Virus record (IMG/VR): IMGVR_UViG_3300001798_000005
Strand: one strand, 5' to 3'
DNA: 64,000 bases
From: a virus
Lineage: Duplodnaviria > Heunggongvirae > Uroviricota > Caudoviricetes
In this document: piece after piece, positions 886-64,000 of the stretch
Layout of the letters: every line of letters starts with the position of its first letter
How positions within the stretch are numbered: the stretch's first letter is position 1
Translations under genes and position numbers: made by a program
Notes under the pieces: generated by a model
The model's database searches: none
What the model was told of the DNA's origin: nothing
Seen by the model: the letters and a program-made list of their open reading frames with translations, nothing else

Positions 886-937
886 ATAAACTATGCCATA
901 AGTATATACTATTGAGTTAATATGTAAAGGGGAAGTC

Positions 938-1569: not shown

Positions 1570-1599
1570 TTTATCAGTGCCCCTGAAAGGAGCCTACCG

Positions 1600-2404: not shown

Positions 2405-2471
2405 AAAGTCAAAGTCATTATCTCACCAGATAATCGGTAGCCAATCCCAGGTTCGGCTTCTCTAATTCTCT

Positions 2472-2885: not shown

Positions 2886-3039
2886 TGACCCATAACCTCG
2901 GGAAGCCGTCTATGAGGAGTTTCTGACCTTCAGAATCCCACCAGAGGGAGAAGGTAAAGAACTCTATTACTTCTGTAACTGTTTTTTGCATCATGTGGAT
3001 ATTTTATTATTTTTCTGAAATTTACGCAAGATGACCCAG

Positions 3040-3189
3040 CTACTGCCGGGCCATCTGCTCAATTTTTTCCTTATTGGCTTTGATCCATGCGTGTGCCTCG
3101 CGGGACATCCGGTGGCCGTAGATGACCTTCACCTCCTCTGGTGGCTTGGGTGGGCGGCCACGAGGGCGCTTGGGGGTTGAGTCAGGCAT
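3040..3189 (-). CDS. small AT-hook-like basic protein (49 aa)
   Basis: ATG overlaps the stop of the upstream gene (ATGCCTGA); RPRGRPPK motif. Confidence 0.3.
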   Translation of the reverse strand: MPDSTPKRPRGRPPKPPEEVKVIYGHRMSREAHAWIKANKEKIEQMARQ

Positions 3190-3544
3190 CGCGCTCAACC
3201 TCTATGCTAAGGCTCTCGCATAGGGCTAGTAGCTTTCTGGGCGGGGTATCCCCCTTCTTATTCCGCTCTGCTAGCGTGGCCAGTACCAGTTTTTTAAAAG
3301 CCTCTTTGCAGAGCACAGTTGATCTCCTGTATGTCAGTATGCCTGTGGACGGGCAATAGTCAATGTCTCTGACTAGAGGATCAGCTTCTAGATGAGAGGT
3401 CTGTGGGGGCTGGTATCCGAAGCCAACCAACCATTCAGCGTGGGTTATTTTGACAGAATCAAAATGGTATGACTCTCCGACACGCACAGCTTCATATATA
3501 CAGCCAGCTCTGTGTTGGCCCCTCTTGATGGCCTTTTTGCTCAT
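3182..3544 (-). CDS. hypothetical protein (120 aa)
   Basis: ORF only. Confidence 0.45.
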   Translation of the reverse strand: MSKKAIKRGQHRAGCIYEAVRVGESYHFDSVKITHAEWLVGFGYQPPQTSHLEADPLVRDIDYCPSTGILTYRRSTVLCKEAFKKLVLATLAERNKKGDTPPRKLLALCESLSIEVERDA

Positions 3545-3675
3545 TGGGTTACGTCCTTTCTGGCGGGATTGCCCGCAGCTCTTGGGTATGTAAGTATTAT
3601 CGTCGAGACGGGAAAGAAATGCAATAGTTTTTTGTCGTTACGTTTAATATTTCTTAAATTTTTGTTCTGTAAGAT

Positions 3676-3972
3676 CTATTTAGACAGGGGGAAGAAATAG
3701 GAAGCACGTGCTCTTGTCTGGACTTGTATTTTTTGCTCATCGATTAATTGATTAATCAAGCTATTTCGTTGGCTCTTATTTAGCCATTGAGTCTTTCTAG
3801 TTAGATCCATTTTGTAAATTCCACAATTATCTGAAATTATTTTATAAATTTTATCTTTCTCACTGTGCCGAGTTGGCTTAAACTCCCCCCTGGTGGTTAT
3901 TATTTCAATTATTTTATCCAGCTTCTCCTCCAGGGTGGTTATTTTGCTTAAAATGAAGTCAACAGTATCCAT
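3676..3972 (-). CDS. small wHTH-like protein sharing the C-terminal motif of the primase-polymerase (possible origin-binding regulator)
   Basis: C-terminus LTRKTQWLNKSQRNSLINQLIDEQKIQ versus primase C-terminus LTRKTQNLNKRRRTEILNDLVESHQIQ. Start assigned to the second ATG (AAAGGAG RBS). Confidence 0.5.
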   Translation of the reverse strand: MDTVDFILSKITTLEEKLDKIIEIITTRGEFKPTRHSEKDKIYKIISDNCGIYKMDLTRKTQWLNKSQRNSLINQLIDEQKIQVQTRARASYFFPLSK

Positions 3973-3999
3973 ATATGGCAATCTCCTTTGATAATTCAA

Positions 4000-4306
4000 G
4001 TATTATAATTGATTTTTTTGATTTTGTAATTCATGAAGTGTATTATTAAGAAAAATATACAACTACAATTGTAGCAATATACATGTGTAATAATATATAT
4101 ATAATATTAATATATATATTATTAATATTATATATAGTATAGATCATCTAGTACACTTCATCAACTTCACGCTTCAACCCCGGTACTGTCTCAGATACCG
4201 GGGTATGGATTTTTGGCTTGAAGCGTGAAGTGTGGGGTTGAAAACTTGTGGGTGATTGACTTTCAGCGATATTGAAATCTGACTGAAACGGGCTGAAGCG
4301 TGAAGC
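4000..4306. other. Candidate replication origin: AT-only tract 4081..4140, then iterons TGAAGCGTGAAG (4218, 4294 forward; 4167 inverted) and inverted repeat CCCCGGTA-N10-TACCGGGG (4178..4203)
   Basis: Read directly; lies immediately 3-prime of the primase/helicase gene and 5-prime of the wHTH paralog. Confidence 0.5.
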
Positions 4307-6502
4307 CTAAACTGGCTGGAAGATCCGCCAAATAGACGTCTTGCCATCATTATCGCATTGGATCTGGTGAGATTCAACCAGGTCATTCAGAATTTCGGTC
4401 CGGCGTCTTTTATTCAAATTTTGGGTTTTTCTCGTCAGGGCGGCCTGGGTGATTCCCTGATGGGCCTCGATGATCCGCAATACTTTTTTCAGCTCGCCCT
4501 CGGTTTCGTTGTCGCTGACGTGTTGGCTCACCATGGCCGCCATCCGGTCCGCTGACATCAGGGCGACGTCATTTGCCCAGCTGATTAGGTCTTTTGTGAT
4601 TACGCCATCCCAGGAGGCCGTGAGGGCGATTTTAGCCGAATGCTCAAAGGATCTCGACCAACACCCCTCCAGACCTGACTTGAGACGGATTTCTTCCGCC
4701 TGTCTGGCCCGGCAGGCGATCATGAAGTCATCCCAAGCCTTCTGGGCCTCTGGGGTCATGAGGATCACTTGAGGCCGGATGGCTGGTTTGCCCAGACTAC
4801 TGAGGTCTATCGCGACATGACCGCCCCTCGGGTGGGCATTGGTCGGCATCGCAGCCAGCTCCTTGATGGCGGATACGATCCCCTCTGGGGGTTCCCCGAT
4901 CCCCTGGCGGCAATGGGGGACGAGTTCAAAGCCTTTTTCTTCAAAATAGAGCCACCGGGCCATAAAGCCATCGCTGGACTCTGAACTCGACAGGGCCTCA
5001 TGGATGTGTTGCGGCACAGAAGTTGCATGAACGTTGAGGCACGGCTGGTCGATATCGGTTCTTCCACGCTTGCCGTCGGCGTTCCCGTACTCGGTTCCGG
5101 CGTAAATCTCGTTTGCCTCGCTGAAGAGCTTCAGCATGAGGGTAGTGATCCCCGCCTGGGGACCGGCGTTTTTTCCCGACATGTGCTTCAGGGTCCGGCC
5201 AAACTCGTCCAATTGCAAAAACGCCCGCCCGTTCCGTTCCGCCAAGGTCTTGAGCAATCCGGCCCCCGAGGCGGGGTCTCCCCCGATCAGGCCCGTCAGA
5301 CCGGCCTCAATCAGAAGAATATTGGCGCATTTTCGATTGTGGTCCTTTCCGGCCCCCGAGGCCGCCATCCCGAGAGTATAAAGGTTGGTCCTGAGGTCTG
5401 ATTCGGTCGCGACCCGATGAGCCCGAACGGCTCCCAGCATCGGTAGAGCTGCCGCCATGGCGAGTTCGGCCGACGGCCATGGGGCTCGGTCCATCATCCA
5501 CCGCACGATATCGCCCAACAACCCCGGTGCCCGCAGGAGGAGGTCATTTTGGACAATAGGGACTTCTACCCTTGGGAGTATATTCCCCCCTGGGATGATA
5601 CAGCCCCGATCTACCGGTGGGGGGGCGGGCTTGACCCAGCCATTTTCATAAGCCCAATAGAAGATCGATTCAATTTTCTTTTCATTTCTCTTAAAGGATT
5701 TCCACTTGCCCGGCTGACGCTTTTCCTGATACTTCAGACTGCTACGGCTCCACTGGTCCCAGAGGGGGAACCCCTGATCGCCCAGGTGGGTCTTGAGCGC
5801 CATCCCGACCTCGATCCAAGTATTGTAGTCATCCGCTGGAATACAGGACAGAGCGGACTCGATCTCCTGATCTGAGGTCCAACTGTAGTCTTGCTGGATC
5901 GCGTATGCCGCAGCGGGCTTGAAGCGCCGAAAAATATCGTCAACCCTTTCGCAAAAGTCAACCGGCAGTTGGGGAATTTTCTCAAAATCAACAGTCGTGA
6001 GGTCTTCCTCGGTGAGCCAGCGGTATTCTGCCCCGCAGGGGTGGACCGTCGGGGGGAGGACGGTCTGACGGCCATCTGAGAGGAGTTCAACCACCATATC
6101 GCCATGGAGTTTCCACTGGTGGGTTTCCTCCCCGGAATGGAGGTAAAAGGCCGTGAAGCCCTTTTCGCCCATCTTCTTTACTGGCGAATCCGGCACCATG
6201 GCCTGAATCTCTGCGTGGATGCCTTCGGCGTCAAAGTCATAATCCAAGGCCACCAGACACCCCAGCGGCCCGAGGGTCATCCCGATCCCGGCGTCGGGCC
6301 ATTTCTCCCAGGCTTCGATCTCAGACGGACTAGCGAGCCGGTGGCTGTAGTGCTTGGTCCACTCCCGCATCTTGCCCCAACGGTATTGCTGGATCTCGGG
6401 ATCAAAGTAGTAGCTCCCTGGAGCTTTCGTCCCTGGACAGATCGGGATAACGGGGAGGTCCTTTTCAACGTACCGGCGGGCGACTTGGGCGAATTTTGAC
6501 AT
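4307..6502 (-). CDS. primase-polymerase (prim-pol) / replicative helicase-like protein with C-terminal wHTH
   Basis: 731 aa. N-terminal prim-pol-like region (VIPICPGTKAP...LDYDF), central P-loop-like GMAASGAGKD, C-terminal wHTH. Confidence 0.55.
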   Translation of the reverse strand: MSKFAQVARRYVEKDLPVIPICPGTKAPGSYYFDPEIQQYRWGKMREWTKHYSHRLASPSEIEAWEKWPDAGIGMTLGPLGCLVALDYDFDAEGIHAEIQAMVPDSPVKKMGEKGFTAFYLHSGEETHQWKLHGDMVVELLSDGRQTVLPPTVHPCGAEYRWLTEEDLTTVDFEKIPQLPVDFCERVDDIFRRFKPAAAYAIQQDYSWTSDQEIESALSCIPADDYNTWIEVGMALKTHLGDQGFPLWDQWSRSSLKYQEKRQPGKWKSFKRNEKKIESIFYWAYENGWVKPAPPPVDRGCIIPGGNILPRVEVPIVQNDLLLRAPGLLGDIVRWMMDRAPWPSAELAMAAALPMLGAVRAHRVATESDLRTNLYTLGMAASGAGKDHNRKCANILLIEAGLTGLIGGDPASGAGLLKTLAERNGRAFLQLDEFGRTLKHMSGKNAGPQAGITTLMLKLFSEANEIYAGTEYGNADGKRGRTDIDQPCLNVHATSVPQHIHEALSSSESSDGFMARWLYFEEKGFELVPHCRQGIGEPPEGIVSAIKELAAMPTNAHPRGGHVAIDLSSLGKPAIRPQVILMTPEAQKAWDDFMIACRARQAEEIRLKSGLEGCWSRSFEHSAKIALTASWDGVITKDLISWANDVALMSADRMAAMVSQHVSDNETEGELKKVLRIIEAHQGITQAALTRKTQNLNKRRRTEILNDLVESHQIQCDNDGKTSIWRIFQPV

Positions 6503-14844: not shown

Positions 14845-15312
14845 AAAAGGGATGAGACTTACGTTGGAGGACGTCGCCGGGGAAAGCGCGGAAGGGGAGC
14901 GGAAGGTAAAACCCCGGTAATCGGCATTGTGGAACGTGGTGGGGAAGTCAAAGCCATTGTGTCCACCGATACTAAAGCCGCAACTATACTACCGTTTATC
15001 TGCGAAAACGTAGAGCCCGGTTCTCAGATGATGACGGACGAGTACGCATCCTATAGCAGGATCTCATTGAACGGTTTCACTCACCAGCGCGTGAACCACG
15101 GTGTTGGTGAGTACGTGGCGGGCATCGTCCACACAAACACAATCGAAGGATTCTGGAGCCAGTTAAAGCGCTCCATAAACGGGACTTATCACTCGGTTAG
15201 TCCGCGTTATCTTCAGTCGTATGTGAATGAGTTTGCGTATCGTTATAATCGTCGCCACGTCCAGGAGCATCCTTTTCACGCTTTGACTTCAACGGCTGCG
15301 CGGCTCGTGTAA
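14845..15312 (+). mobile_element. IS1595-family (ISXO2-like) transposase DDE-domain fragment, in frame after the helicase TGA; lacks start codon and N-terminal Zn-ribbon (pseudogene/remnant)
   Basis: KRDETYVGGRRRGKRGRGAEGKTPVIGIVERGG ... VSTDTKAA ... HTNTIEGFWSQLKRSINGTYHSVS..YLQSYVNEFAYRYNRR. Confidence 0.7.
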
Positions 15313-17747: not shown

Positions 17748-18408
17748 TAGGTTTCTCCTTTTCTGCAAAGTCACTACATTTCAGTTTTGTGATAATCCGA
17801 TTGCCTGATCGGGTCTTGAGTTCAACAACTGGGCGGGCCACGACGCCTTCAGCCCGGAAGGCCCCTCCATGGGTCCAGGTGGAATTGAATCCAACTTTGA
17901 CAAATTCAACCATTTCCAGCAGATTCCCTCGACCAACGATCGGAACGACCGAAAGGCCAAAAGTAGATGCTACATTTTCCAGATCAGGTCTTTTGAGCCA
18001 CCAATTGCCAACTTTGACGTCAAAGAGTACAAAGTCTTGATCGGGGCGATACAGTGCCCCAACTTTTTGGATCTTAGCCCCATAGCCCTCTCCGTAGAGG
18101 ACTGCGCCATTTGGAAAATCCTCATTGAGCTTTGCACTCTGATGGAAAAAGAGTTCTTCCAACCTGTTGATCAGGCTTGCTGGAATTTGAGCGTTAGCGG
18201 TCCGTCCCCCGAAGGATATCCTACCCCCATTGGCGATAGGGTCGACGATGATCCGAATATTGGTCCCATCGACTTTCTCGGTCCAGACCCAATCCATCAG
18301 CGCCAAATATTCAAAATATTCATTACTGTACTGCCCTTCCAGAAGGGCTTTTGATTTATTTTCAATATCCCGCTTGAAGACCGTGTTGATTTTGTGGTAT
18401 TCAGACAT
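17662..18408 (-). CDS. ATP-dependent RNA ligase-like nucleotidyltransferase (Rnl2-like)
   Basis: Motif I KVDGTN (KxDG), EGYG, FDVK, EGVVARP-like motifs; 248 aa. Confidence 0.55.
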   Translation of the reverse strand: MSEYHKINTVFKRDIENKSKALLEGQYSNEYFEYLALMDWVWTEKVDGTNIRIIVDPIANGGRISFGGRTANAQIPASLINRLEELFFHQSAKLNEDFPNGAVLYGEGYGAKIQKVGALYRPDQDFVLFDVKVGNWWLKRPDLENVASTFGLSVVPIVGRGNLLEMVEFVKVGFNSTWTHGGAFRAEGVVARPVVELKTRSGNRIITKLKCSDFAEKEKPNGSHFHRPGEANQEMENNFISPAGLIGL

Positions 18409-19051
18409 GGATTAACTCCTTTCCTGAACAGTTCCAACCGGGATATTCCCGCCGGGCAAATAATTCATATTTCTTTTCAACACCAGGATACATGGCCTCA
18501 ATGAGGGGATGGATGTCGGGCTTGCGGGAATGTTCCATGATTTTCTCCCGAATGATCGAGGGGGTCATCCGCTTGCCCCCAAAGGCCGCAGGCGTGACGC
18601 CTTGCCCCCGCGTGGCGATTATGCATATTTCGGCATTGGAAGCAGTATAGTGGCCAGGGCCATATTTAAGCTTTCCAGACCCTTTCTGTTCCTTTGTCCA
18701 CACAAAGCCAATGGTCGAGTATTCAAATCCCCACCCCTGGAGGACCGTCAGGGCATCATTGGGGCGGGTCCAGGTCTGAGTGGGCTTCCAGGAGGGTCGG
18801 CGACGCTGGCCATCGTACATCATCGGAAATGTCATCCACATGAACAGGATTGACCTCGGTCCCGCCAGGGCGGGGACGTCATACGTGATCGCAGGGTTGA
18901 TGATGTCCTGGGCCTTGAGGCATTCATAATGCCCGTCTGCCCCAGAGCCGAACCGGGTCCGGCCTCCACCGGTTAGGCGGTTGGCGTATTTCCAATTCGG
19001 ATCGGCCAAGAGGAGGGTCGCCTCAGGGAGCGGTTTTGTGATTTTAATCAT
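18401..19051 (-). CDS. MT-A70-family N6-adenine DNA methyltransferase
   Basis: LLADPNW (DPPW-type motif IV). Confidence 0.65.
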   Translation of the reverse strand: MIKITKPLPEATLLLADPNWKYANRLTGGGRTRFGSGADGHYECLKAQDIINPAITYDVPALAGPRSILFMWMTFPMMYDGQRRRPSWKPTQTWTRPNDALTVLQGWGFEYSTIGFVWTKEQKGSGKLKYGPGHYTASNAEICIIATRGQGVTPAAFGGKRMTPSIIREKIMEHSRKPDIHPLIEAMYPGVEKKYELFARREYPGWNCSGKELIHV

Positions 19052-40782: not shown

Positions 40783-41559
40783 TTAAACGACAGGATTCAA
40801 TTTGTCGTAAAGTTTCACACCCTCATCTGAAAACAGCGCTTTCGTGTAAGCTTGCTCAAAAGTTAGGCTTGGGTTTTTATCAACAATTTCTTTCGCCATA
40901 GCGGTTAGGCGGTCCTGAGGGGCTTTTTTCTCAACAGAAGCCTTGCCGACTTCCTTAAAGGCAGAACCCAGGGACTCATTGGCGGATTTCAAAACCTGAA
41001 GGGCGTATTCTTTATTATCGCCATCGAGGCCAGCCAAGGCTTTCAACAGTTGAGCCTTTTGGACTTCATCCCCAGGGAGGTTGGGGATTTCGGCATTTGC
41101 CTGTTTGGCAAATGCATTCAATTCCAGGACTTCCTGTTGGGACTTCAGGGTTTTGGCCATTTCAAGATTTTGTTTCACAACAGCTTCAAGCTGTTTCTGA
41201 ATGGTTTCCGAAAGCCCCTCTTTGGCAACTTCAGCGGCCTTGGCCTCAGCGGCCTCCTTGTCGGCGATCGCTTTAGCGACTTCCTGGGCGGCATCGGCTT
41301 GAGATTTGGCGAGTTTGTCCTCAGCGGTTTTTTGATCCGCCTGGGCCTGCTCAAGAGCTTTTTGCATTTCTTCCAAGGTCATTTTAGGGACTCCCTCATT
41401 AAATTCTGCATCTGTTTTAATTTCAGATTCCTCGATCATAGCATCCGAATCACACGATCCGTTTTTTGTCAACAGCATGTTGGCAAATTGATTTGCTCCA
41501 ATGGTGACATTTGATACTTCAGTGAGGATCAGCTTGTGACATTTCTTTTTAGCTTTCAT
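40783..41559 (-). CDS. scaffolding protein
   Basis: Ala/Glu/Lys-rich coiled coil between protease and decoration genes. Confidence 0.55.
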   Translation of the reverse strand: MKAKKKCHKLILTEVSNVTIGANQFANMLLTKNGSCDSDAMIEESEIKTDAEFNEGVPKMTLEEMQKALEQAQADQKTAEDKLAKSQADAAQEVAKAIADKEAAEAKAAEVAKEGLSETIQKQLEAVVKQNLEMAKTLKSQQEVLELNAFAKQANAEIPNLPGDEVQKAQLLKALAGLDGDNKEYALQVLKSANESLGSAFKEVGKASVEKKAPQDRLTAMAKEIVDKNPSLTFEQAYTKALFSDEGVKLYDKLNPVV

Positions 41560-42562
41560 CTAATTTTTCCCATACGGCATTGCCGCCTATTGAAAACATT
41601 TTGAGGTTGCCATCCTTGATGGATTTCCAAACCTCTGAATCGTCAATCTTCACACCAATCAGCCAGCCGACCTTTTTTAGATCAATCCCTAAAACCTTCT
41701 GAAGCTCTTTAGTGAACATCATCGATTCAACAATGGTTCCGGTGGATTCACCGACGTGCATTGTTTTATTGGATCTGGAGTCCTGCATGAATTCCACAAC
41801 CGCATCAGCCAAAACGTCTTCCGGGATGATGTCACCATGTTGGTCGATGACTTCTTTCCCGTCTTTCTCCACCACAGAGGCCCACCCATAGACGAGCTGT
41901 TTGTCAGTAGCGCCGGTCTTGATGATCTCCCCCTCCATCTTGAGGGTATCGGCCCAGTCGGTCCGGTAGGGCATCACTTCTTCCGCCTCGAAGGAAAGCT
42001 CAAAAGTCGGGAGCTTTACTTTAGAAAGATCAAAATTAAGTCCCACATTATAAGAGACCGTCACATGTGGCTCCCGGTATTCCGCCCAATCGAAATCCAT
42101 CCCGAGGGCAATTGCCTTCGTGTTTTGTTCATCTACCTCATGGCAGGGGAAGCTCAAAACCAAGGCCTCACGGTTTGGCCCAACGAACTTCAGAGAGTAA
42201 GGGGGGTATTCGTCATTTAACCCAATCTGTACCCGGATAGGGTTAACGAGCGGTTCATACCCGGCAAAACCATCAGGGGACCTGATGACGGTACAGTGAA
42301 GGAGTTCAGCCGGGACCGGGTTGGGGATCTTATTCTCTTCCGCCCATCTGGAAAGATTCACCTCAGTGGTGGCGTCGGGTTTCATCCATGAATAGATGCC
42401 GGCCGATTCCTTCCAGGTCCGTTCAGGAGATAAAAAACCCTGCTTCTCGACGGCGATCCAAGCGGCAAAGGATCGGTGGATCTCCCCCTGGTTGGGGGCA
42501 GCCAGGTAAGCCTTGTAGAAGGCTTCACGGGCTGGCATGTTGGGGATTTGGTTAAAGTCCAT
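41549..42562 (-). CDS. fusion of N-terminal 2H phosphoesterase (LigT/CPDase-like) domain and C-terminal XkdF-like (S78) prohead protease domain
   Basis: Two H-x-T-x motifs (LHCTVI, PHVTVS) about 79 aa apart; C-terminus LVYGWASVVEKDG...HGDIIPED...HVGESTG resembles XkdF-type proteins (from memory). Confidence 0.45.
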   Translation of the reverse strand: MDFNQIPNMPAREAFYKAYLAAPNQGEIHRSFAAWIAVEKQGFLSPERTWKESAGIYSWMKPDATTEVNLSRWAEENKIPNPVPAELLHCTVIRSPDGFAGYEPLVNPIRVQIGLNDEYPPYSLKFVGPNREALVLSFPCHEVDEQNTKAIALGMDFDWAEYREPHVTVSYNVGLNFDLSKVKLPTFELSFEAEEVMPYRTDWADTLKMEGEIIKTGATDKQLVYGWASVVEKDGKEVIDQHGDIIPEDVLADAVVEFMQDSRSNKTMHVGESTGTIVESMMFTKELQKVLGIDLKKVGWLIGVKIDDSEVWKSIKDGNLKMFSIGGNAVWEKLDES

Positions 42563-44968: not shown

Positions 44969-46474
44969 CTATCTCGCGTATGGGTTGTAATGGGTCAGAC
45001 CACTCTGGAGATCATTGTCCCGAAGCGCCCTAGGGGCCTGCTGTTCATTCCCGGTCGTGATAGGGCCACAGGTGATCGCTTTTGGCTGACGGGACCATTT
45101 CATGATACGGCTCAAATATTGCGACATCGCGTCAACGTCATCATCATGAGTCACGTTGGGGAAATTGCACCAGTTCGCCACCGTGGCCTTTACCCATGGC
45201 TTGTTCCTGGGGACAAAGACCTTTCCGGCCTCAAAGTACGTTGAGACAAAATTGACCCGTTCGGTCTTGCTCATCCCCATGTTCTTGCCGGGCATCATGG
45301 CGATCACCGGGATGGCGGAATCGGCCCGCATGTCCTGAATGAGCTGTTGCCCTGAGGCCTTATCCTCAATGAGGGCCTCCAGGGCGGGGTATTGTCTCCA
45401 TTGGTCCCTGAAGGTCTTCTTAAGCTCCGGGTATGGCATCTTACGCTTAACCTGCTCAACCAGATAATGCCCATTGTCGCACTCGGCCCAGAGCTGACCG
45501 ACTGAATAGTCATTCTCCTGTTTTTCCTTGATCGCGGTGTCCCAGGACCACCGGAAAGCCTTCACGGGCGGAAGCTCATCCCAGTATTGGATCCATTCCG
45601 GTAAGAGGATACCCTTGCCGGGGCTGACATTCCAGTTTCCCCCCAGGAGTTGCTCTCGGTCGATTCTCGGCAGGGCCATCAGGTTAGCGAGATAGCCGGG
45701 ATCTTTTTCCATCAGGATCTTATTGTCATAAATGGAGGCCGCGATAAAGGTGAAGGACTTGGGAAGCGTTGGAAGTTCTGGGGTTGAGGGATACTTTTCC
45801 AAAAGTTCTTCAGCAGTGTCGCCCCAGAGGAATTCGTCTTCTCTGACGATGAACCACCGGATTTTACCCGACCGCTCTGGAATCGGCAGGCCATCTTCGC
45901 CGATCCACCAATCAATCAACTCCCTGACAAATGAATCCGAATCAGGGTTGCAGGTGGCCCGGATGTAAGGTTTGACCCCACAGGTGGAGCGATTCCGAGA
46001 AAACATATAGAAGAATTGCCCCCGGGTGAAGTGGGTCAACTCATCGAAACCCATCATGGGCAGCTCAGACCCCTGATAGGACAGCTTGTCCTTCTCGTGC
46101 TCCATATGGGCGAAGGTCACGCTTGCCCCGCTGGGGAAAGTCCACTGAAGCTTGGAGATCAAGGGCTTCCCGCCCAGTTGGGGAAACATGGCTTGGCTCT
46201 GATCCCAGAGTGAACCTTGTTTTTTGATCTGTGGAGAGGTCCTGCGGAATATGACAGCGCCGAAGTTGGGGTTATCGGTGTTGCGAAATGACTCAGCGAG
46301 AAGGCTCCAGGATTTTCCACCCCCCGCCGCCCCGCCATAAATGGCTACGTCAGCGGATGTTGACAAGAATAACTCCTGCGGGCCTGGCTGAGGGGACATC
46401 TCTATAGTCAAAATAGCCTCACTTGTTGAGCCTCTGAGATAAGGTTTTTCCAGCTTTAGGCTTCTGTTGTTCAA
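44969..46474 (-). CDS. terminase large subunit
   Basis: Walker A YGGAAGGGKS, Walker B GFDELTH, C-terminal nuclease-like region. Confidence 0.8.
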   Translation of the reverse strand: MNNRSLKLEKPYLRGSTSEAILTIEMSPQPGPQELFLSTSADVAIYGGAAGGGKSWSLLAESFRNTDNPNFGAVIFRRTSPQIKKQGSLWDQSQAMFPQLGGKPLISKLQWTFPSGASVTFAHMEHEKDKLSYQGSELPMMGFDELTHFTRGQFFYMFSRNRSTCGVKPYIRATCNPDSDSFVRELIDWWIGEDGLPIPERSGKIRWFIVREDEFLWGDTAEELLEKYPSTPELPTLPKSFTFIAASIYDNKILMEKDPGYLANLMALPRIDREQLLGGNWNVSPGKGILLPEWIQYWDELPPVKAFRWSWDTAIKEKQENDYSVGQLWAECDNGHYLVEQVKRKMPYPELKKTFRDQWRQYPALEALIEDKASGQQLIQDMRADSAIPVIAMMPGKNMGMSKTERVNFVSTYFEAGKVFVPRNKPWVKATVANWCNFPNVTHDDDVDAMSQYLSRIMKWSRQPKAITCGPITTGNEQQAPRALRDNDLQSGLTHYNPYAR

Positions 46475-57242: not shown

Positions 57243-57511
57243 AAGACGACATTGCAGCCGCCATGGAGATTGTCCTGAAGGGGGGCGGAAGTATCCCGAC
57301 ATTGCTCTTTATCCCCGGGCACGGATTCTTGGACGCTCAGGGGATCCGGGATCTCCTGATGGGGCTCAATGATTCTTCTTTAGATTTTCTCAAAAAACTC
57401 CAAACCTGTCACCCAGTAAGGGTTTTCAAAGGCAAGTCTCAGCCGATCCCCGGCGGCGGCTTCGGGGGAAGGTTAAAGCTCAACCGCCTCAGCGACAAAA
57501 AGGATCCCTGA
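57239..57511 (+). CDS. hypothetical protein
   Basis: ORF. Confidence 0.35.
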   Translation: MKDDIAAAMEIVLKGGGSIPTLLFIPGHGFLDAQGIRDLLMGLNDSSLDFLKKLQTCHPVRVFKGKSQPIPGGGFGGRLKLNRLSDKKDP

Positions 57512-57841
57512 CGTCAAGGCCCCAGAGGACTGGATGACCAACGCAGCAGCGGATTCGGTGGCGAGGATGAAGCTATCGACGTCCCCACAGGGGACCGAAA
57601 CCTGTAGGCCATCATTGGCGGCCAGCTCAGGGATGCAGAGCGTGGTGGAGCCGCTTTTGAACGTAATGTTCATCGCGGTGCCATCGCTGATCCAGGCTCC
57701 GACGAGAAAGATTTTAGCAACCCCGGTGGGGGTTCGGATGGTCAGATCTGCCCCGGTGGTGTCGATAACGACTTTATACCCGTAGACGGTGGCCTTGCCC
57801 CGGCGGGTAATGGTGCTGACGAGTGTTGCTGAATTGGCCAT
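57473..57841 (-). CDS. hypothetical beta-rich protein, divergent from promoter copy 2
   Basis: ORF only. Confidence 0.4.
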   Translation of the reverse strand: MANSATLVSTITRRGKATVYGYKVVIDTTGADLTIRTPTGVAKIFLVGAWISDGTAMNITFKSGSTTLCIPELAANDGLQVSVPCGDVDSFILATESAAALVIQSSGALTSGILFVAEAVEL

Positions 57842-57955
57842 AAGGATCTCCCTGTCTGTTTATTTGATCATAAGCCATGGATCTGCTATGATGACTCCAC
57901 CATAGCTAAACCTTTATCCTTATCTGGCCGCAAGAAATTGTGGCTTTTCTTTGTG

Positions 57956-58021
57956 AATCCTCATTTGACTGTCATTTGATTCTGGTATTATAATTGTATA
58001 CCAGAAAGGGAAAGAGGAACG
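57956..58021 (+). promoter_or_regulatory. Conserved early promoter/operator copy 2 (ATCCTCAT 57957, TTGACT 57965, TATAAT 57989, dyad, RBS)
   Basis: 57978..58021 identical to 484..527. Confidence 0.6.
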
Positions 58022-58025
58022 ACAG

Positions 58026-58250
58026 ATGAACAGCCCGAAAACGAAACCAGAACGCCTTCAAGAAGAACTTGAACTTTCCCTGGATGTCCTTGACTCACTC
58101 CAGGAGAAAATTGCCGCAATGCGGATCCTCTTGGAAACCGGCAAGGCTGATCAGTATGCTGGCCGAGAGCTTCGATTCGCTGAAGCGTCCCTGCCGGGGG
58201 CTGAGTATGATATCCGGCGGTTTCAAGAAGCGATTGCCCTTTCAGCTTAG
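58026..58250 (+). CDS. hypothetical protein (74 aa)
   Basis: ATG at conserved spacing after repeated RBS. Confidence 0.5.
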   Translation: MNSPKTKPERLQEELELSLDVLDSLQEKIAAMRILLETGKADQYAGRELRFAEASLPGAEYDIRRFQEAIALSA

Positions 58251-58886
58251 GCTGAAGGGCTCGCCGTTGCGGGTGATCGGGAGGGTGGGGTAAACTCTTC
58301 TAACTTTATAGAGCATCTCATCACACGCCTGCGGGCTGCCAGAACCAACAATGAGCTGGTGTGTGCCTATGTCAAAAATATCACCCGGTTGACAAAATCC
58401 AGTTTCAGGCGCCTGTGGGGGCGGGGCCATTGGAGCTTCCAACTCCTCAACGGATTCCCCCAAGTCCAGATCGGGGAAATTGATCTCATCCAGCAATTCT
58501 GAAAGATCTATATCCTCCACGAAGGCGTCAAAGCTCTCCTGGGTGATGGTGCCGTGCTCGCTTGATGCCTGGAGGACCAGGGCCTTCGCGCCTTCGATGG
58601 ACTCGGCCCATATCTCGACAACCGGGAGGTCTGGCACGGTATAACCTTCGGCCTCTAGTTCCGCCAAGGCCTTGCAGCGCCCAGCGCCGTCGATGATGAG
58701 GCGGTGATCGGCCCAGACGTAGAAAGGAAAGCAGAATCCACGGTTGACTATTGCGTTTTTGAGTTTTGAGATATCTCGGTCCTCAACGGCCTTGAGGGTA
58801 TTGGCCTCGAAGGTCTTCAGCTCCCCCCAGGAGAGGGTTGGAACGTTTTGGACCTGAATGGGGAAGGTCTTTTGTTTCTTGGCCAT
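58242..58886 (-). CDS. ParB/Srx-like N-terminal nuclease-domain protein
   Basis: NAIVNRGFCFPFYVWADHRLIIDGAGRCKAL; acidic C-terminal half. Confidence 0.4.
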   Translation of the reverse strand: MAKKQKTFPIQVQNVPTLSWGELKTFEANTLKAVEDRDISKLKNAIVNRGFCFPFYVWADHRLIIDGAGRCKALAELEAEGYTVPDLPVVEIWAESIEGAKALVLQASSEHGTITQESFDAFVEDIDLSELLDEINFPDLDLGESVEELEAPMAPPPQAPETGFCQPGDIFDIGTHQLIVGSGSPQACDEMLYKVRRVYPTLPITRNGEPFSLS

Positions 58887-58894
58887 GTGTGTCT

Positions 58895-58917
58895 CCAATT
58901 AGGAAGTTCCTAATTGG
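58895..58917. promoter_or_regulatory. 23-nt palindrome CCAATTAGGAA-G-TTCCTAATTGG overlapping the RBS of the ParB-like gene (operator or parS-like site)
   Basis: Perfect 11-bp arms read directly. Confidence 0.45.
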
Positions 58918-58959
58918 ATTTTACTTGCCAGATGGGCGAAGTTATGTAACAATTGGAAT

Positions 58960-59109
58960 ATGAAACAATTCCTTTCCAACCGGCAAAAATCCCGCACCCC
59001 GAGAGGTGGCGGCTTTTGGTGCGTGAATTGTGATCGATGTATCGTTTCAGCGGGGCAGAGATGTCCTGTCTGTAGAGTCAGAAACGGAAAAAAGAGAGAT
59101 AAGCCTTGA
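58960..59109 (+). CDS. basic zinc-ribbon micro-protein (49 aa)
   Basis: CVNCDRC...CPVCRVRNGKK. Confidence 0.3.
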   Translation: MKQFLSNRQKSRTPRGGGFWCVNCDRCIVSAGQRCPVCRVRNGKKRDKP

Positions 59110-59462
59110 AGATAATCGTTTGTGGCGGCAGAAATTACACCGATAAGTCTTTTGTCTTTGAGTGCCTGGATGAGCTGAACGCGACAGGATTTATTGATCA
59201 GATCATTAATGGCGGAGCCAATGGCGCTGACGCCTGGGCCGAACTATGGGCAAAAGAACGGGGCAAGGATTGTGTCACTATCCCGGCCAATTGGCTAAAA
59301 TTTGGCAACCAAGCCGGGCCAATCAGAAACGCGCAAATGATCCAAATGAAGCCGGATCTCGTGGTGGCGTTCCCAGGGGGTAAGGGCACGGCCAACATGG
59401 CCCGGCAGGCAGTCTCGGCAGGTATAGAAGTCTGGAAAATGGAAAGGGATAAAAGTGACTGA
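59106..59462 (+). CDS. DUF2493/YspA-like SLOG-family protein
   Basis: IIVCGGRNYTD...INGGANGADAWAELWA...VVAFPGGKGTANMARQA pattern recalled from DUF2493; TTG start. Confidence 0.4.
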   Translation: MKIIVCGGRNYTDKSFVFECLDELNATGFIDQIINGGANGADAWAELWAKERGKDCVTIPANWLKFGNQAGPIRNAQMIQMKPDLVVAFPGGKGTANMARQAVSAGIEVWKMERDKSD

Positions 59463-59591
59463 ACCTTACAATTCCCATAAAGCTGGTAAAGATTTGGCCG
59501 CCAAGGTTAGGCCCTTATTCCGGGCGGGCCTTCTTGGCAGCCATGGAATCTTTCCCGGCTACAAGAATTATCTTTTGGTTCGATAACTGAT

Positions 59592-59655
59592 AATCCTCAT
59601 ACAATTCCATAAATCGTTTTAGTATAATAACCATATACCAGACAACAGAGGAACG
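59592..59655 (+). promoter_or_regulatory. Conserved early promoter/operator copy 4 (degenerate left arm)
   Basis: TAATCCTCAT 59591, TATAAT 59623, ATACCAGACAACAGAGGAACG. Confidence 0.45.
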
Positions 59656-59659
59656 CTCA

Positions 59660-59821
59660 ATGATTCTTTACGCCGGAACCCTGCACCAAACCCCCGCCAT
59701 CAGCTCTACTGATGCCCAACCGTGCCCGCACTGCGAAGGTTCCGGGGTCATCTGGGGCGGGGAAGATGACCTGACCTGCCTGGACTGTGATGGCTTGGGC
59801 CATCGGGTGGTGGAGCTGTGA
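59660..59821 (+). CDS. zinc-ribbon micro-protein (53 aa)
   Basis: CPHCEGSG...CLDCDGLG; stop overlaps next GTG. Confidence 0.35.
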   Translation: MILYAGTLHQTPAISSTDAQPCPHCEGSGVIWGGEDDLTCLDCDGLGHRVVEL

Positions 59822-60108
59822 AGGTCGTAATTTCTGAATGTCATGGGGGCTTTGGGTTGTCTGAGGCCGCCCAGATGTGGATCGCGGAAAAGGGATTGAA
59901 CCCTGATGCCCTCTTGGCCCAGTGGACCGCTGGGGAGCTGCGGGGGCTCCAGGTCCTAGTTGATTGCGTGGAAGCCCTTGGGGAGCGGGTCAACACCTCT
60001 TTCTCAAAGCTCTCCGTGATAGAGATCCCCGAGGGGGTGGATTTTGAGATACTGGATTACGACGGCTGGGAGTGGGTGGCGGAACGCCATCGGCGGTGGC
60101 CTGGATGA
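59818..60108 (+). CDS. hypothetical protein
   Basis: ORF; its 3-prime end is window positions 1..93 in the left copy. Confidence 0.45.
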   Translation: MKVVISECHGGFGLSEAAQMWIAEKGLNPDALLAQWTAGELRGLQVLVDCVEALGERVNTSFSKLSVIEIPEGVDFEILDYDGWEWVAERHRRWPG

Positions 60109-60184
60109 CTTGGTTTGAGGCTTTTCTCTGGACCCTTGCTGGGATCTGGATTGCAGAAAATTTAACAAAAAGAAAGGAAACAAA

Positions 60185-60466
60185 ATGCAAACAATGAGTT
60201 TTGAAATTCCCCTCGGGAGTGACGTTCAGGATGTCGTGACCGGCTTTAAGGGGCGGATTGATTCGGTTTGCCTGTGTCTAAATGGCTGCATCCGCTACAG
60301 TGTGACGCCGATGGTCAAAGATGGCGGCATCGGGGAGGGCTATTGGTTTGACTCCCAGAGGATCGAACTCCTCGGACCAGGCATTAACGCCACCAAGCCC
60401 CAAGAGCAAACGGGGACCGGTGGGCCGATGACACGGAGCCTAATGGAAAAATCAGCCCGGGGGTGA
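60185..60466 (+). CDS. duplicate of 170..451
   Basis: identical. Confidence 0.5.
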   Translation: MQTMSFEIPLGSDVQDVVTGFKGRIDSVCLCLNGCIRYSVTPMVKDGGIGEGYWFDSQRIELLGPGINATKPQEQTGTGGPMTRSLMEKSARG

Positions 60467-60546
60467 GAATATGATAATACTCATAGAACTCCCTTATGGA
60501 TTCTGGTATTATAATTGTATACCAGAAAGGGAAAGAGGAACGCCCA

Positions 60547-60852
60547 GTGAACGCCATCGAAACTGCCCAAGCCATCATCGCCAAAGCCCAAGCCACCCTG
60601 GCAGATCCCAGTGCTGAACGCGCCAAAGGCGAGGCTTATGTGGACGCCTTGGCGGCTTCGGGAAATCAAGTCAACCAAGCCCTGGCGGCTGGGCTTGACC
60701 GGCACCACAGCGCCAATATCATCGCCCAAACGGATTTTGAATTTGATCGCCGGGACGCCTTCGGGCCTAAAGGAACCGTTCAAGATAGCCGAGAAAACCG
60801 CATTGAAGCGGCTGACCTCTTGGACGCCTTCGAAGAGGAAATGGGCTGGTAA
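60547..60852 (+). CDS. duplicate of 532..837
   Basis: identical. Confidence 0.5.
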   Translation: MNAIETAQAIIAKAQATLADPSAERAKGEAYVDALAASGNQVNQALAAGLDRHHSANIIAQTDFEFDRRDAFGPKGTVQDSRENRIEAADLLDAFEEEMGW

Positions 60853-60952
60853 AAAAATAAATATACCGATCGGTAGATTAATTTCTACCATAATAGAAGT
60901 ATAAACTATGCCATAAGTATATACTATTGAGTTAATATGTAAAGGGGAAGTC

Positions 60953-61327
60953 ATGCCAAAAAACAACCCAGAGCCCAGGACGGCGCACATCTTCTCAATT
61001 CCGGATCGTGAATTTCAAGCCCTCAAGAGCTTGGCCGCCCAGGCGGGGGTTTCGATTGCTCAATACTGTGAGGACCTAATCATGCTCAATCCCGATATTG
61101 AGATTGAGAGAAAAGAAAAGTGCAAAAACAGAAATATCAACATGTCGGCCACCACCTGGGCGCGGCTCAAAGAGCGGGGAGACCAACTTGGAGTTTCGGC
61201 TTGCTCGGTCCTGAGGGGGTTAATCGGCCCAGCGGCCTTGGTGGATGTCAGATTCATGCAGAATGGTATTCATGTTGTGGCCTCCCCGATGGTCAAGAAG
61301 GTGGTCTATAACGCCCCAGGGGGGTAG
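60953..61327 (+). CDS. duplicate of RHH gene 938..1312
   Basis: identical. Confidence 0.45.
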   Translation: MPKNNPEPRTAHIFSIPDREFQALKSLAAQAGVSIAQYCEDLIMLNPDIEIERKEKCKNRNINMSATTWARLKERGDQLGVSACSVLRGLIGPAALVDVRFMQNGIHVVASPMVKKVVYNAPGG

Positions 61328-61614
61328 ATAAAGTCACCTGGAAGGCGAACCTAGACCCCTTAACTGGACCTCAGAAACCATTGCGCGGGCTCCCGCTCCC
61401 CCAAATGACACCAGGATACAAGCCAGACATTTGGATGATGGGGGAAGCTTATCCTTCTTTGGAATAATTTTATTTACACAATACCCCTTAGCGAGCGCCA
61501 ATAGGCGCTCTTTCCTTTTGTGATAATCCTCATAGAAATATTGATCAAAACTATGGTATAATATCCTCATACCAGAAAGAAAAGTTTATCAGTGCCCCTG
61601 AAAGGAGCCTACCG

Positions 61615-61818
61615 ATGCCTACCCCAACTCAACTCTGCCGCCTTAAAGGTCACTTAAAGGAACAATTCCTTCAGGCTCCAATCACGGTCATCACCGGAGA
61701 GGCAAGCGAGGCTTTCCCTCACCGGTGGGTGGCGGAACGTTATCCTGCTTCAATTTGCTTAACCTGGCAGGCCAAAGTAGATTATTGCCAAGAATGCTTT
61801 ATTGAGCTTCCCGCCTAA
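61615..61818 (+). CDS. duplicate of 1600..1803
   Basis: identical. Confidence 0.45.
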   Translation: MPTPTQLCRLKGHLKEQFLQAPITVITGEASEAFPHRWVAERYPASICLTWQAKVDYCQECFIELPA

Positions 61819-62486
61819 AGCGGCTCAGCCGCACCCCTGCGTGCCTCGCAACAAGCGGGGCACTTTAGGTTTTCACCCTTTCGGGCTGGCCACTCCTTGG
61901 CGGCTGAGTTGTAGTGTTCGTCCCAGTGGGTCGGGATCACACCTGAGGGGTTGGCTCTGGTCTTTTGACGATTGCCGCCCTGACCGTCCAGTTGGTCCTC
62001 GGCTGATGCCTCCATCTTGCGGGTCTGTTGGGTCTTGATGTGTCGAGTATTCCAGTGGTGACAAACCCGAGGGTTGCGACGGGTACGGCTCATCAATCCC
62101 ACCAGTGGTTGCCGAGTCGGGCCACCATTTGCCAGATCCGATCCCAGTGGTATTTTTCCAGTTTTTCAGAATTTTCATACTGGGCACGCGCCAGTAACGC
62201 TTCACCGAAGCGCTTTTCAATCTTCCAGCCGTCAGGATCTTTAATACAATCCAGCTCCACCACTCCTGTACACAGCCACGGTGAATTCTGGTATCGATCA
62301 ATATGGGTCCTCATTATGGCGATCTGTTCCGCCCTTTTGGCCCCATCGAGCCTGTAGCCGTCCTGGACCGAGGCCTCTAGACGTTTCAGCTTAAAAGACA
62401 TTATAGGCAAAATTGCCAAAAAGTCAAAGTCATTATCTCACCAGATAATCGGTAGCCAATCCCAGGTTCGGCTTCTCTAATTCTCT

Positions 62487-62900
62487 TCATCTCCTGACCC
62501 ACCCACGCGGTACAGGGCGGCCCTCTGATCTAAAGTAATAGGGTTGGACCCCCAATATTGAAATCATGTGCCTTAATGCCTCGCTGGGGGTATGGAAAAA
62601 TCTCTTTACGTTCTGGAAGACCAGAATATTCCGATCCCGATAGTGTTTTCTTGCTTTTGGATCCCGATAGCCTCTTTTGACCTGGAGGCGTTTTGTGCGG
62701 ATCTGATCGACGTCGAGGTATTCGATTTTGAAATCAAAGCCACTCCCGTCCTCAATAGAACCCATACGGGACCGCCGATAACGGATCAGATAGTCCCGAT
62801 CCTGAGCCCGTCCCAGGAGGGCCTCCACGAAGTGCTCAGCCGCCAGGCCGAGCTGGCTAATGGGATCGTCGTAATTATGTTTAGTTTTGGTTTTCTTCAA
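62487..62900 (-). CDS. duplicate of 2472..2885
   Basis: identical. Confidence 0.4.
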   Translation of the reverse strand: MKKTKTKHNYDDPISQLGLAAEHFVEALLGRAQDRDYLIRYRRSRMGSIEDGSGFDFKIEYLDVDQIRTKRLQVKRGYRDPKARKHYRDRNILVFQNVKRFFHTPSEALRHMISILGVQPYYFRSEGRPVPRGWVRR

Positions 62901-63196
62901 TGACCCATAACCTCGGGAAGCCGTCTATGAGGAGTTTCTGACCTTCAGAATCCCACCAGAGGGAGAAGGTAAAGAACTCTATTACTTCTGTAACTGTTTT
63001 TTGCATCATGTGGATATTTTATTATTTTTCTGAAATTTACGCAAGATGACCCAGCTACTGCCGGGCCATCTGCTCAATTTTTTCCTTATTGGCTTTGATC
63101 CATGCGTGTGCCTCGCGGGACATCCGGTGGCCGTAGATGACCTTCACCTCCTCTGGTGGCTTGGGTGGGCGGCCACGAGGGCGCTTGGGGGTTGAG

Positions 63197-63559
63197 TCAG
63201 GCATCGCGCTCAACCTCTATGCTAAGGCTCTCGCATAGGGCTAGTAGCTTTCTGGGCGGGGTATCCCCCTTCTTATTCCGCTCTGCTAGCGTGGCCAGTA
63301 CCAGTTTTTTAAAAGCCTCTTTGCAGAGCACAGTTGATCTCCTGTATGTCAGTATGCCTGTGGACGGGCAATAGTCAATGTCTCTGACTAGAGGATCAGC
63401 TTCTAGATGAGAGGTCTGTGGGGGCTGGTATCCGAAGCCAACCAACCATTCAGCGTGGGTTATTTTGACAGAATCAAAATGGTATGACTCTCCGACACGC
63501 ACAGCTTCATATATACAGCCAGCTCTGTGTTGGCCCCTCTTGATGGCCTTTTTGCTCAT
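63197..63559 (-). CDS. duplicate of 3182..3544
   Basis: identical. Confidence 0.45.
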   Translation of the reverse strand: MSKKAIKRGQHRAGCIYEAVRVGESYHFDSVKITHAEWLVGFGYQPPQTSHLEADPLVRDIDYCPSTGILTYRRSTVLCKEAFKKLVLATLAERNKKGDTPPRKLLALCESLSIEVERDA

Positions 63560-63690
63560 TGGGTTACGTCCTTTCTGGCGGGATTGCCCGCAGCTCTTGG
63601 GTATGTAAGTATTATCGTCGAGACGGGAAAGAAATGCAATAGTTTTTTGTCGTTACGTTTAATATTTCTTAAATTTTTGTTCTGTAAGAT

Positions 63691-63987
63691 CTATTTAGAC
63701 AGGGGGAAGAAATAGGAAGCACGTGCTCTTGTCTGGACTTGTATTTTTTGCTCATCGATTAATTGATTAATCAAGCTATTTCGTTGGCTCTTATTTAGCC
63801 ATTGAGTCTTTCTAGTTAGATCCATTTTGTAAATTCCACAATTATCTGAAATTATTTTATAAATTTTATCTTTCTCACTGTGCCGAGTTGGCTTAAACTC
63901 CCCCCTGGTGGTTATTATTTCAATTATTTTATCCAGCTTCTCCTCCAGGGTGGTTATTTTGCTTAAAATGAAGTCAACAGTATCCAT
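63691..63987 (-). CDS. duplicate of wHTH gene 3676..3972
   Basis: identical. Confidence 0.5.
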   Translation of the reverse strand: MDTVDFILSKITTLEEKLDKIIEIITTRGEFKPTRHSEKDKIYKIISDNCGIYKMDLTRKTQWLNKSQRNSLINQLIDEQKIQVQTRARASYFFPLSK

Positions 63988-64000
63988 ATATGGCAATCTC

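Follow-up and report, generated by a model that had tools for sequence, protein, structure and literature searches.

A probable ParB-methyltransferase-family gene without the catalytic core, and the conserved palindrome in its control region, in a 60-kb phage genome

The DNA analyzed here is the IMG/VR virus record IMGVR_UViG_3300001798_000005, a stretch of 64,000 nucleotides (nt) from a member of the Caudoviricetes that we refer to as the window. Near its right end, the minus strand carries a gene for a protein with a ParB/Srx-like fold (58242-58886), and a perfect palindrome (58894-58918) is located directly upstream of this gene. Beyond the palindrome, the plus strand contains a small zinc-ribbon open reading frame (ORF) and a gene for a SLOG protein, and on the other side a 74-amino-acid (aa) gene converges on the ParB-like gene. 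In a preliminary description of the locus, the palindrome was suggested to be either a parS-like centromere, indicative of a plasmid-like prophage, or an auto-operator. Our analysis points instead to a member of a family of phage DNA methyltransferase fusions that very probably lacks the catalytic core, and to a strongly constrained control element upstream of it, for which we tentatively favor a role as a transcribed stem-loop.

The ParB-like gene encodes 214 aa, from an ATG at 58886 to a stop codon at 58242-58244. The TTG at 58898, which appears as the start in the ORF listing, was discarded, because a 2-nt indel in the orthologous leader of a related locus (L016, discussed below) puts it out of frame. 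A Pfam search with the protein sequence returned nothing even at E ≤ 10, and neither sequence nor profile searches of the PDB gave a match. The assignment therefore comes from PHROG profiles and from the predicted fold. The top PHROG match was phrog_498, annotated as 'DNA methyltransferase' (E 7e-14, covering positions 26-206 of the 633-position profile); two weakly matching families were annotated as 'ParB-like partition protein'. An AlphaFold2 model, built with 15 homologues, has a mean predicted local distance difference test (pLDDT) score of 76.8, with values around 90 in the N-terminal domain, disorder at residues 134-160, and values of 79-92 in the last 50 residues. Foldseek searches with this model against the PDB and the BFVD viral models were headed by viral proteins named 'adenine-specific DNA methyltransferase', 'ParB protein' and 'ParB/Sulfiredoxin'. 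Judging from the model, we are confident that the protein has a ParB/Srx (ParB-CTPase) fold. The preliminary description was thus essentially right in assigning a ParB/Srx-like domain to the N-terminus on the evidence of PHROG and AlphaFold2/Foldseek, with the Pfam ParBc profile itself remaining unmatched. The protein can be divided into a nucleotide-binding-type domain (residues 1-125), a disordered acidic linker (126-165) and a vestigial N6/N4-methyltransferase stub (166-214).

An exhaustive profile search (E ≤ 1e-3) identified 3348 cluster representatives of the family. Among the 149 best members, PF01555 (N6_N4 methylase) was matched by 33, GmrSD_N by two, DndB by one, and PF02195 (ParBc) by none. 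Most of the top family members (about three quarters) consist of a ParB domain alone, with no methylase. The window protein has kept all 16 residues that are invariant in the family, including D66-G67-x-G69-R70 (in the sequence IDGAGR), which is located at the strand-helix turn expected for the GxxR / DGxxR phosphate motif and may serve in nucleotide binding. The protein is acidic, with a calculated isoelectric point (pI) of 4.4 for the whole chain and 4.9 for the N-terminal domain.

The closest relative, P0016, is a ParB-methylase fusion of 403 aa. Residues 1-181 of the window protein align with residues 1-184 of P0016 at 78% identity, and a second segment, residues 188-212, aligns with residues 376-400 (E 3e-5). 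The intervening part of P0016 (residues ~185-375) has no counterpart anywhere in the window. In full-length relatives, a GDxYxIGxHRL motif is found around position 170, DPPY around 205, and the conserved tail around 380-400. The window protein has retained the first of these (GDIFDIGTHQL, at 168) and the tail (…PITRNGEPF). It therefore resembles the phage ParB-N6/N4 methylase fusions (PF01555; PMC12704722; phrog_498), which are reported to be enriched in phages (PMC12704722), in the ParB/Srx domain, the linker, the GDxxxIGxHxL motif and the last ~25 residues. Unlike these fusions, it is devoid of the ~190-aa core, which contains DPPY and the S-adenosylmethionine (SAM)-binding motif: in a motif scan and in Pfam, the protein had no DPPY-type motif, no FxGxG SAM-binding motif and no PF01555 match. 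From these alignments, the minus-strand gene is in all likelihood the N-terminal module of the phage ParB-N6/N4 DNA methyltransferase fusion family. We are similarly sure that the ~190-aa catalytic core is absent in frame, and that the start of the methylase and its last ~25 residues remain as a small folded stub of ~50 aa. With DPPY and the SAM-binding motif missing, the 214-aa product should not be a methyltransferase. It is very probably unable to methylate DNA, and appears to have no recognizable DNA-binding or partition parts.

Loss of the core, together with the many family members that look like variously truncated methylase fusions and with the position of the gene antisense to a strongly promoted transcription unit, might indicate a decaying, functionless ParB-methylase relic, with the palindrome as its leftover leader. 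We consider this improbable. The reading frame is intact, with 16 of the 16 family-invariant residues in place. Comparison of the window gene with the P0016 gene over the ParB domain (codons 1-135) gave a ratio of nonsynonymous to synonymous substitution rates (dN/dS) of 0.065 at a dS of 0.98, a pairwise value that covers both lineages jointly and is unable to show that the window lineage is still under selection. The stub is predicted to fold (pLDDT 79-92) and is colinear with the stub of another relative, P0015 (38% identical overall). P0015 shares the short architecture; its alignment with the window protein is gap-free across the junction, and in both proteins HQLIVG and NG are separated by 25 residues. 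Stand-alone ParB domains are also the rule in the top family, as mentioned, and an identical gene was found in two independent samples.

The most likely role of the ParB-fold protein would be to bind nucleotides and to assist or regulate DNA-modifying enzymes in trans, because methylases and Tet/JBP dioxygenases are the fusion partners or gene neighbors of its relatives. The gene for P0015 is part of an integrated prophage (L010 5459-10365), where it lies between the terminase gene terS and a separate gene for a 569-aa methylase, which is followed by terL. Other relatives are encoded just upstream of terL, and the gene for P0003 (L014 6001-8289) is directly upstream of Tet_JBP and TAGT genes. 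The latter arrangement provides a link to the 5mYOX-type systems, in which ParB-like proteins that lack a DNA-binding domain are reported to activate the thymine dioxygenases of phages (PMC13229309). Like these activators, the window protein is a small phage ParB-fold protein with a nucleotide-binding domain and no DNA-binding domain. The 5mYOX-associated proteins work with DNA-modifying enzymes, and for the window protein a similar dependence on a partner is predicted. Unlike in those systems, no Tet/JBP gene was found in the window phage, and the C-terminus is a methylase stub rather than a ParB-type dimerization domain. Genes for a dNMP kinase, an MT-A70 adenine methylase and an NT5C deoxy-pyrimidine 5'-nucleotidase elsewhere in the genome (10134-10766, 18401-19051 and 20523-21107, respectively) hint at nucleotide-pool remodeling or DNA modification. 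The MT-A70 enzyme (18401-19051) might be a trans partner for the ParB-fold protein.

The palindrome upstream of the gene (58894-58918, not assigned to a strand) reads TCCAATTAGGAA-G-TTCCTAATTGGA. It had been described as perfect and 23 nt long; it is indeed perfect, and its length is 25 nt, with two 12-nt arms that are 100% complementary around a 1-nt centre. The window represents a complete, circularly closed phage genome of 60,015 base pairs (bp), either circular or terminally redundant. In a self-comparison, positions 1-3985 of the window are identical to 60016-64000, and an ENA megahit record with identical sequence has 60,156 bp, which corresponds to 60,015 bp plus a k-mer overlap of 141 bp. 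Since the genome is closed, further copies of the half-site, as called for in the preliminary description, could be searched for exhaustively. There is no second copy with 0-1 mismatch in the genome, so the dyad is unique, and the number of sites with two mismatches (7) is as expected by chance (8.05).

With the exception of an AT-only tract (4088-4136), the 60,015-bp genome contains no other perfect short-loop inverted repeat as long as the palindrome. In 20 shuffled sequences, we found 0-2, and mostly 0, repeats with arms of at least 10 nt and a loop of at most 3 nt. By our own arithmetic, one would expect ~0.01 cases with 12-nt arms based on chance alone. The AT-only tract itself consists of nested palindromes with arms of up to 17 nt immediately upstream of the Prim-Pol gene (4307-6502, minus strand), and is a candidate replication origin.

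Outside the window, the pattern CCAANNAGGAANTTCCTNNTTGG had three matches in IMG/VR and 25 in JGI metagenomes, none with a ParB-like gene alongside. Direct reading of the three IMG/VR sites showed that one is within a DNA polymerase gene and that two are intergenic hairpins of very large viral contigs; for the 25 JGI loci, tblastn found no ParB-like gene on any. The stricter 25-mer was not matched in 185,579 reference genomes, and the DNA of the locus had no match, near or distant, among 50,697 cultured phages. Two further candidate elements were dropped. AATTGGA (58948-58954), considered as a third half-site, is not kept in L016. For a repeated terminator-promoter motif composed of the hairpin and TTTTACTTGCC, the 11-mer was found at this site alone, and looser matches occurred at chance frequency.

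The only close relative of the locus available is represented by two independent assemblies, L016 and L017. The palindrome, whose absence from homologous loci would have counted against the preliminary description, is present in this closest homologous locus, where it reads TCCAAATAGGAA-C-TTCCTATTTGGA. Comparison with the window shows 23 of 25 nt to be identical. The differences are mirror-symmetric, T to A in one arm and A to T in the other, which keeps the dyad perfect. No change is seen in the flanks GGCAAGTAAAA and GAGACACAC of L016, though 55% of the synonymous sites differ. Such identity of palindrome and flanks at a dS of ~1, close to saturation of synonymous sites, marks the dyad as a constrained cis-element of the ParB gene cassette. 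We consider it highly likely that the palindrome is under much stronger constraint than synonymous sites, and that its sole change has been one that preserves base pairing. Protein-based locus searches of metagenome and genome collections identified no further close relatives, and a homology search with the N-terminal domain of P0016 added none, so that the covariation rests on one pair.

In blastn comparisons, L016 329-831 aligns with window positions 58955-58455 at 83% identity, and homology stops past codon ~144. The module common to the window and its nearest relative (58455-58955, minus strand) therefore consists of a 69-nt control region (58887-58955) and the first ~144 codons, which encode the ParB domain. 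The neighbors differ on both sides: in L016, the divergent gene is unrelated and encodes 81 aa, and the ORF downstream is co-directional. Given these boundaries of homology and the different neighbors, the unit that travels between phages very likely comprises the ~70-nt control region together with the ParB domain. An upstream dyad is not a general feature of the family, as it is absent from L003-L008, L055-L058 and L010, and as the palindrome at L009 is AT-rich and unrelated. The zinc-ribbon protein and the 74-aa protein were both considered as a common regulator and rejected, since neither is encoded at the L016 locus.

When transcribed, the palindrome is predicted to form a stem-loop with an 11-bp stem and a 3-nt loop on either strand, with a folding energy of about -14 kcal/mol (centroid -14.2). 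In both phages, the 91-nt region around it is more stably folded than any of 200 shuffled versions (region z -3.7). As had been claimed, the palindrome overlaps the ribosome-binding site (RBS) of the ParB-like gene: the Shine-Dalgarno sequence GGAG (58893-58896, minus strand), which is kept in L016, is located 6 nt before the ATG at 58886, with three of its four bases inside the dyad and within the stem. On the plus strand, the T-rich tail TTTTACTT (58919-58926) is found directly past the stem, has a terminator-like score, and is identical in L016 in 8 of 8 nt. The complement of this region holds the sequence TAAAAT (58923-58918), a possible minus-strand -10 element with no acceptable -35 element. 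A sigma-70-like promoter, TTGCCA-17-(TGT)AACAAT, reads rightward on the plus strand (58925-58953), with a predicted transcription start at ~58960, the ATG of the zinc-ribbon ORF. The L016 counterpart is TTGCCC-17-(TGT)AAGAAT, with hexamers and TGT kept and 6 of 12 upstream spacer positions changed. Such a phylogenetic footprint is what a genuine promoter directed away from the ParB-like gene should leave.

The convergent 74-aa gene (58026-58250, plus strand) overlaps the stop codon of the ParB-like gene by 9 nt with its 3' end, and is under the control of a strong, repeated promoter element (57965-57994). The latter is part of a promoter-leader element of ~70 nt, with the near-consensus sequence TTGACT-18-TATAAT, which occurs in three plus-strand copies. 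The first (57940-58028) drives the 74-aa gene, the second is found at 60461-60543 (equivalent to 446-528), and the third, at 59577-59662, has diverged. The core of the element is a perfect 27-nt palindrome, TTCTGGTATTATAATTGTATACCAGAA, around the -10 sequence TATAAT, and the element looks like a common early promoter with a built-in operator. The ParB-like gene is thus placed antisense within a rightward early transcription unit, and a transcript from the promoter at 57965-57994 would cross it antisense towards the palindrome, with no other terminator-like site on the way. Both lone minus-strand genes of the early region (a 122-aa ORF at 57473-57841 and the ParB-like gene) are associated with a hairpin and T-tract in plus direction followed by a plus-strand promoter (57926-57945 and 58894-58918, respectively), which suggests that both lie, in antisense orientation, within the 3' portion of a rightward transcript. 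The same 'island' layout is seen for a homologue at L055 2501-3712, which is a lone opposite-strand gene in a 61-kb phage contig.

We tentatively favor the interpretation that the palindrome acts as a transcribed stem-loop, by 5'-untranslated region occlusion and/or as a plus-strand terminator, and assign it a probability of about 0.45. In the ParB mRNA, the stem-loop would bury the GGA of the GGAG RBS, and translation would be throttled or the 5' end stabilized. In the plus-strand transcript, the stem and TTTTACTT are built like an intrinsic terminator, and would end antisense transcription arriving from 57965 just ahead of the promoter at 58925-58953. In support of a stem-loop, the double change in L016 preserves pairing, the RBS GGA is buried, and the T-tract on the other strand is conserved. 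Moreover, the dyad is located at the end of the antisense read-through path, just ahead of the supported promoter. A hairpin with an 11-bp stem and a 3-nt loop that takes in the Shine-Dalgarno GGA, and TTTT directly past the stem on the other strand, are shared with known RBS-occluding 5' stem-loops and intrinsic terminators. Unlike these, the stem is AT-rich and palindromic to the centre, and the role proposed here is a prediction from sequence.

Several observations weigh against a stem-loop of this kind. Only two independent versions of the palindrome are available, so that compensatory change is limited to a single pair. At a dS of ~1, neither the loop nor any other position of the stem has changed, which argues for sequence-specific recognition, beside or instead of pairing. 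Complementarity extends to the very centre (12+1+12), which an RNA hairpin does not need. We found no convincing promoter for the ParB-like gene upstream of the stem within the conserved block, and the sole conserved -10-like sequence, TAAAAT (58923-58918), would place the mRNA start in the left arm, so that the hairpin would be lost. With 4 GC pairs out of 11, the stem is rich in AT, unlike the clearest terminators of the genome, which are GC-rich, and terminator-like sites are not above chance genome-wide (21 versus 18.4 expected). The nearest plus-strand gene upstream of the stem and TTTTACTT ends 640 nt away. In L016, the gene downstream of the ParB-methylase gene is co-directional, and antisense read-through is not evident. 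For the wider account, in which a functional ParB-fold protein acts on enzymes in trans, it counts as a drawback that no such partner was identified in the phage, and that the dN/dS value is a joint one for the two lineages.

Alternatively, the palindrome might be a double-stranded DNA operator, bound by a dimeric regulator at overlapping divergent promoters. The regulator could be the ParB-fold protein itself, as in the auto-operator of the preliminary description and by analogy with DndB or KorB, or a phage or host factor. We regard an operator as the main alternative, though as less likely than a stem-loop, and the same applies to its proposed position, which would be over the transcription start of the ParB-like gene, if TAAAAT is the -10 element, and just upstream of the rightward -35 element. 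The 25-bp dyad that is perfect through its centre fits this interpretation, as does the near-complete sequence conservation, including the loop and both flanks, versus a dS of ~1. The site is between or over two promoters, one of them with a phylogenetic footprint, and the cis site and the ParB domain are inherited together as a block, with the C-terminal domain and the neighbors swapped. ParB-fold regulators are also known, as DndB is described as an ATP-dependent repressor (PMC12704722) and KorB a clamp-to-repressor switch (PMC11790492), and the Pfam families DndB and GmrSD_N are matched by one and two members of the family, respectively. However, the ParB-like protein is strongly acidic and has neither a helix-turn-helix (HTH) nor any other DNA-binding domain. 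Pfam scans of nearly all ORFs of at least 120 aa, together with precomputed hits, also revealed no HTH-type regulator in the genome. There is a single site in 60 kb, a symmetric half-site change would require protein co-evolution or luck, and distant ParB-methylase genes have no upstream dyad.

A more elaborate scheme, to which we give little weight, would treat the dyad and the ParB-fold domain as a portable cis/trans pair. The HTH-less protein would be loaded at, or regulated through, a parS-like dyad. It would then either switch the divergent promoters, as a nucleotide switch of the KorB or DndB type, or target a DNA-modifying enzyme, in cis in the case of the fused methylase of the relative and in trans in the window phage.

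Centromere sites usually adjoin parB genes and are palindromes. The window palindrome could therefore also be a parS-like loading site or centromere, serving either the partition of a plasmid prophage or the loading of a clamp that directs DNA modification. The linkage of the dyad to a ParB domain in two phages would be in line with this, and so would the earlier claim that the phage has no integrase, which agrees with our Pfam scans. Earlier authors have also hypothesized that ParB homologues guide the modification machinery to specific loci (quoted in PMC13229309). Similarities to partition ParB/parS systems (P1, N15, Spo0J), to KorB and to DndB extend to the ParB/Srx fold, the position of the D-G-x-x-R phosphate motif and a palindrome beside the gene. 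Unlike the partition proteins, which have GERRxR, the window protein has DGAGR, and it is acidic. In the model, only two helices (97-110 and 116-125) follow the nucleotide-binding domain, before the disordered acidic linker, and therefore there is no central HTH domain, in agreement with Pfam. A ParB C-terminal dimerization domain is likewise absent, as this end of the protein can be aligned with the first motif plus the final 25 residues of an N6/N4 methylase, and the protein sequence does not contain the ParA-binding motif (L/F/I)G(K/R)G(L/F/I).

The remainder of the genome also speaks against a centromere. The Pfam scans of nearly all ORFs of at least 120 aa revealed no ParA/CbiA-type family, no other partition genes, no plasmid replication genes, no protelomerase and no integrase, and no lysogeny repressor or recognizable HTH repressor. 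The genome looks like that of a virulent siphovirus with its own replication module. The virion module is of the siphovirus type, with a T4-type large terminase (44969-46474), a Mu-like portal, a capsid protein, a tail tube, a tape measure and a GpJ-like tip protein. The replication and nucleotide module encodes Prim-Pol, AAA_24, DUF669, a PD-(D/E)XK nuclease, a dNMP kinase, a PIF1 helicase and an exonuclease, and further a SNF2-type helicase, RusA, an NT5C nucleotidase, an RNA ligase and an MT-A70 methylase. Relatives of the ParB-like protein are encoded in integrated prophages that do have an integrase, and beside terminase genes. Finally, there is one site only, and its pattern is found in no reference genome, and in viral and metagenome sequences without an adjoining ParB-like gene. 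We therefore regard a parS-like site as very improbable. The interpretation of the ParB-fold protein as a centromere-binding protein, and of the locus as a plasmid-partition module, is not supported, and the suggestion of a plasmid-like prophage is not borne out.

Three other features of the genome were noted in passing. In the head-morphogenesis module, a single protein (41549-42562, minus strand) combines an Acb1 domain (a phosphodiesterase directed against CBASS, the cyclic-oligonucleotide-based anti-phage signaling system) with an XkdF-type serine protease domain. A 127-aa fragment in the replication module (14929-15312, plus strand) is similar to the C-terminal two thirds of the IS1595/ISXO2 DDE transposase domain (E 2e-34), and looks like a transposase remnant. 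A 49-aa ORF (63055-63204, minus strand) contains KRPRGRPPKPP, by eye a textbook AT-hook motif, and had no match in Pfam.

The SLOG protein (59106-59462, plus strand) has 118 aa with a TTG start and is a stand-alone domain of family PF10686 (YAcAr, formerly DUF2493). The preliminary description had recognized this correctly, and the match is well above the cut-off (66.5 versus 28.2 bits, E 1.8e-18, model positions 1-65 of 66); phrog_289 was also matched (E 2.5e-25). More than 1700 homologues of ~115-120 aa were found, with PF10686 present in 120 of 120 among the matches listed. Like other YspA/YAcAr proteins, it matches the family over its full length, is of typical size, contains the glycine-rich motif NGGANGAD, and is encoded in a string of small early genes. 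Compared with the family, nothing about it is distinctive, and it has no conserved partner gene and no link to ParB-like proteins. The homologues examined are encoded in strings of small early phage genes, near genes for single-stranded DNA-binding and single-strand annealing proteins, HNH proteins or integrases. There was no ParB-like or zinc-ribbon partner in the loci examined. Conversely, no SLOG gene was detected when 18 loci (L003-L020, ~15 of them with a ParB-like gene) were scanned with the SLOG protein. A connection of the SLOG protein to a conflict system found no support, as PADLOC gave no match and the neighbors of homologues are unrelated small early genes.

Nor do the ParB-like and SLOG genes directly flank the palindrome, as had been stated, and their pairing is not conserved. 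The neighbor on the plus side is the zinc-ribbon ORF (58960-59109, plus strand), which encodes 49 aa with a CxxC-x11-CxxC pattern and a pI of 10.9, and whose stop codon overlaps the SLOG start (TTGA, 59106). A tblastn search identified similar sequences (48-55% identity) in jumbo phages of Brevundimonas, with 54% identity at E 7e-6, and in Synechococcus phage S-SRM01. The counterpart is annotated as a gene in S-SRM01, and the window ORF is uncalled in the ENA record. Based on these similarities, we treat the ORF as a real gene. Its mRNA may be leaderless, because the predicted transcription start coincides with the ATG. The pairing of ParB-like and SLOG genes is almost certainly incidental, with the SLOG and zinc-ribbon genes as independent early genes next door.

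Together, the above observations show a ParB-like gene that is probably a structurally unusual but understandable member of the phage ParB-methylase family, with a control element that would operate at the post-transcriptional or the transcriptional level. The locus has no bearing on plasmid-prophage biology, and its SLOG gene adds nothing new. Its relevance lies with the ParB-CTPase-fold modules beside or fused to DNA-modifying enzymes, which have only recently been recognized as common in phages, and the role of which is unsettled. With the methylase core gone, and the ParB-fold domain apparently under strong purifying selection, the locus can be seen as a natural 'separation-of-function' allele, in which a short conserved control element moves with the ParB domain. 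It may thus offer a convenient test case, both for the role of the ParB-fold part in its own right and for control at the RNA versus the DNA level.

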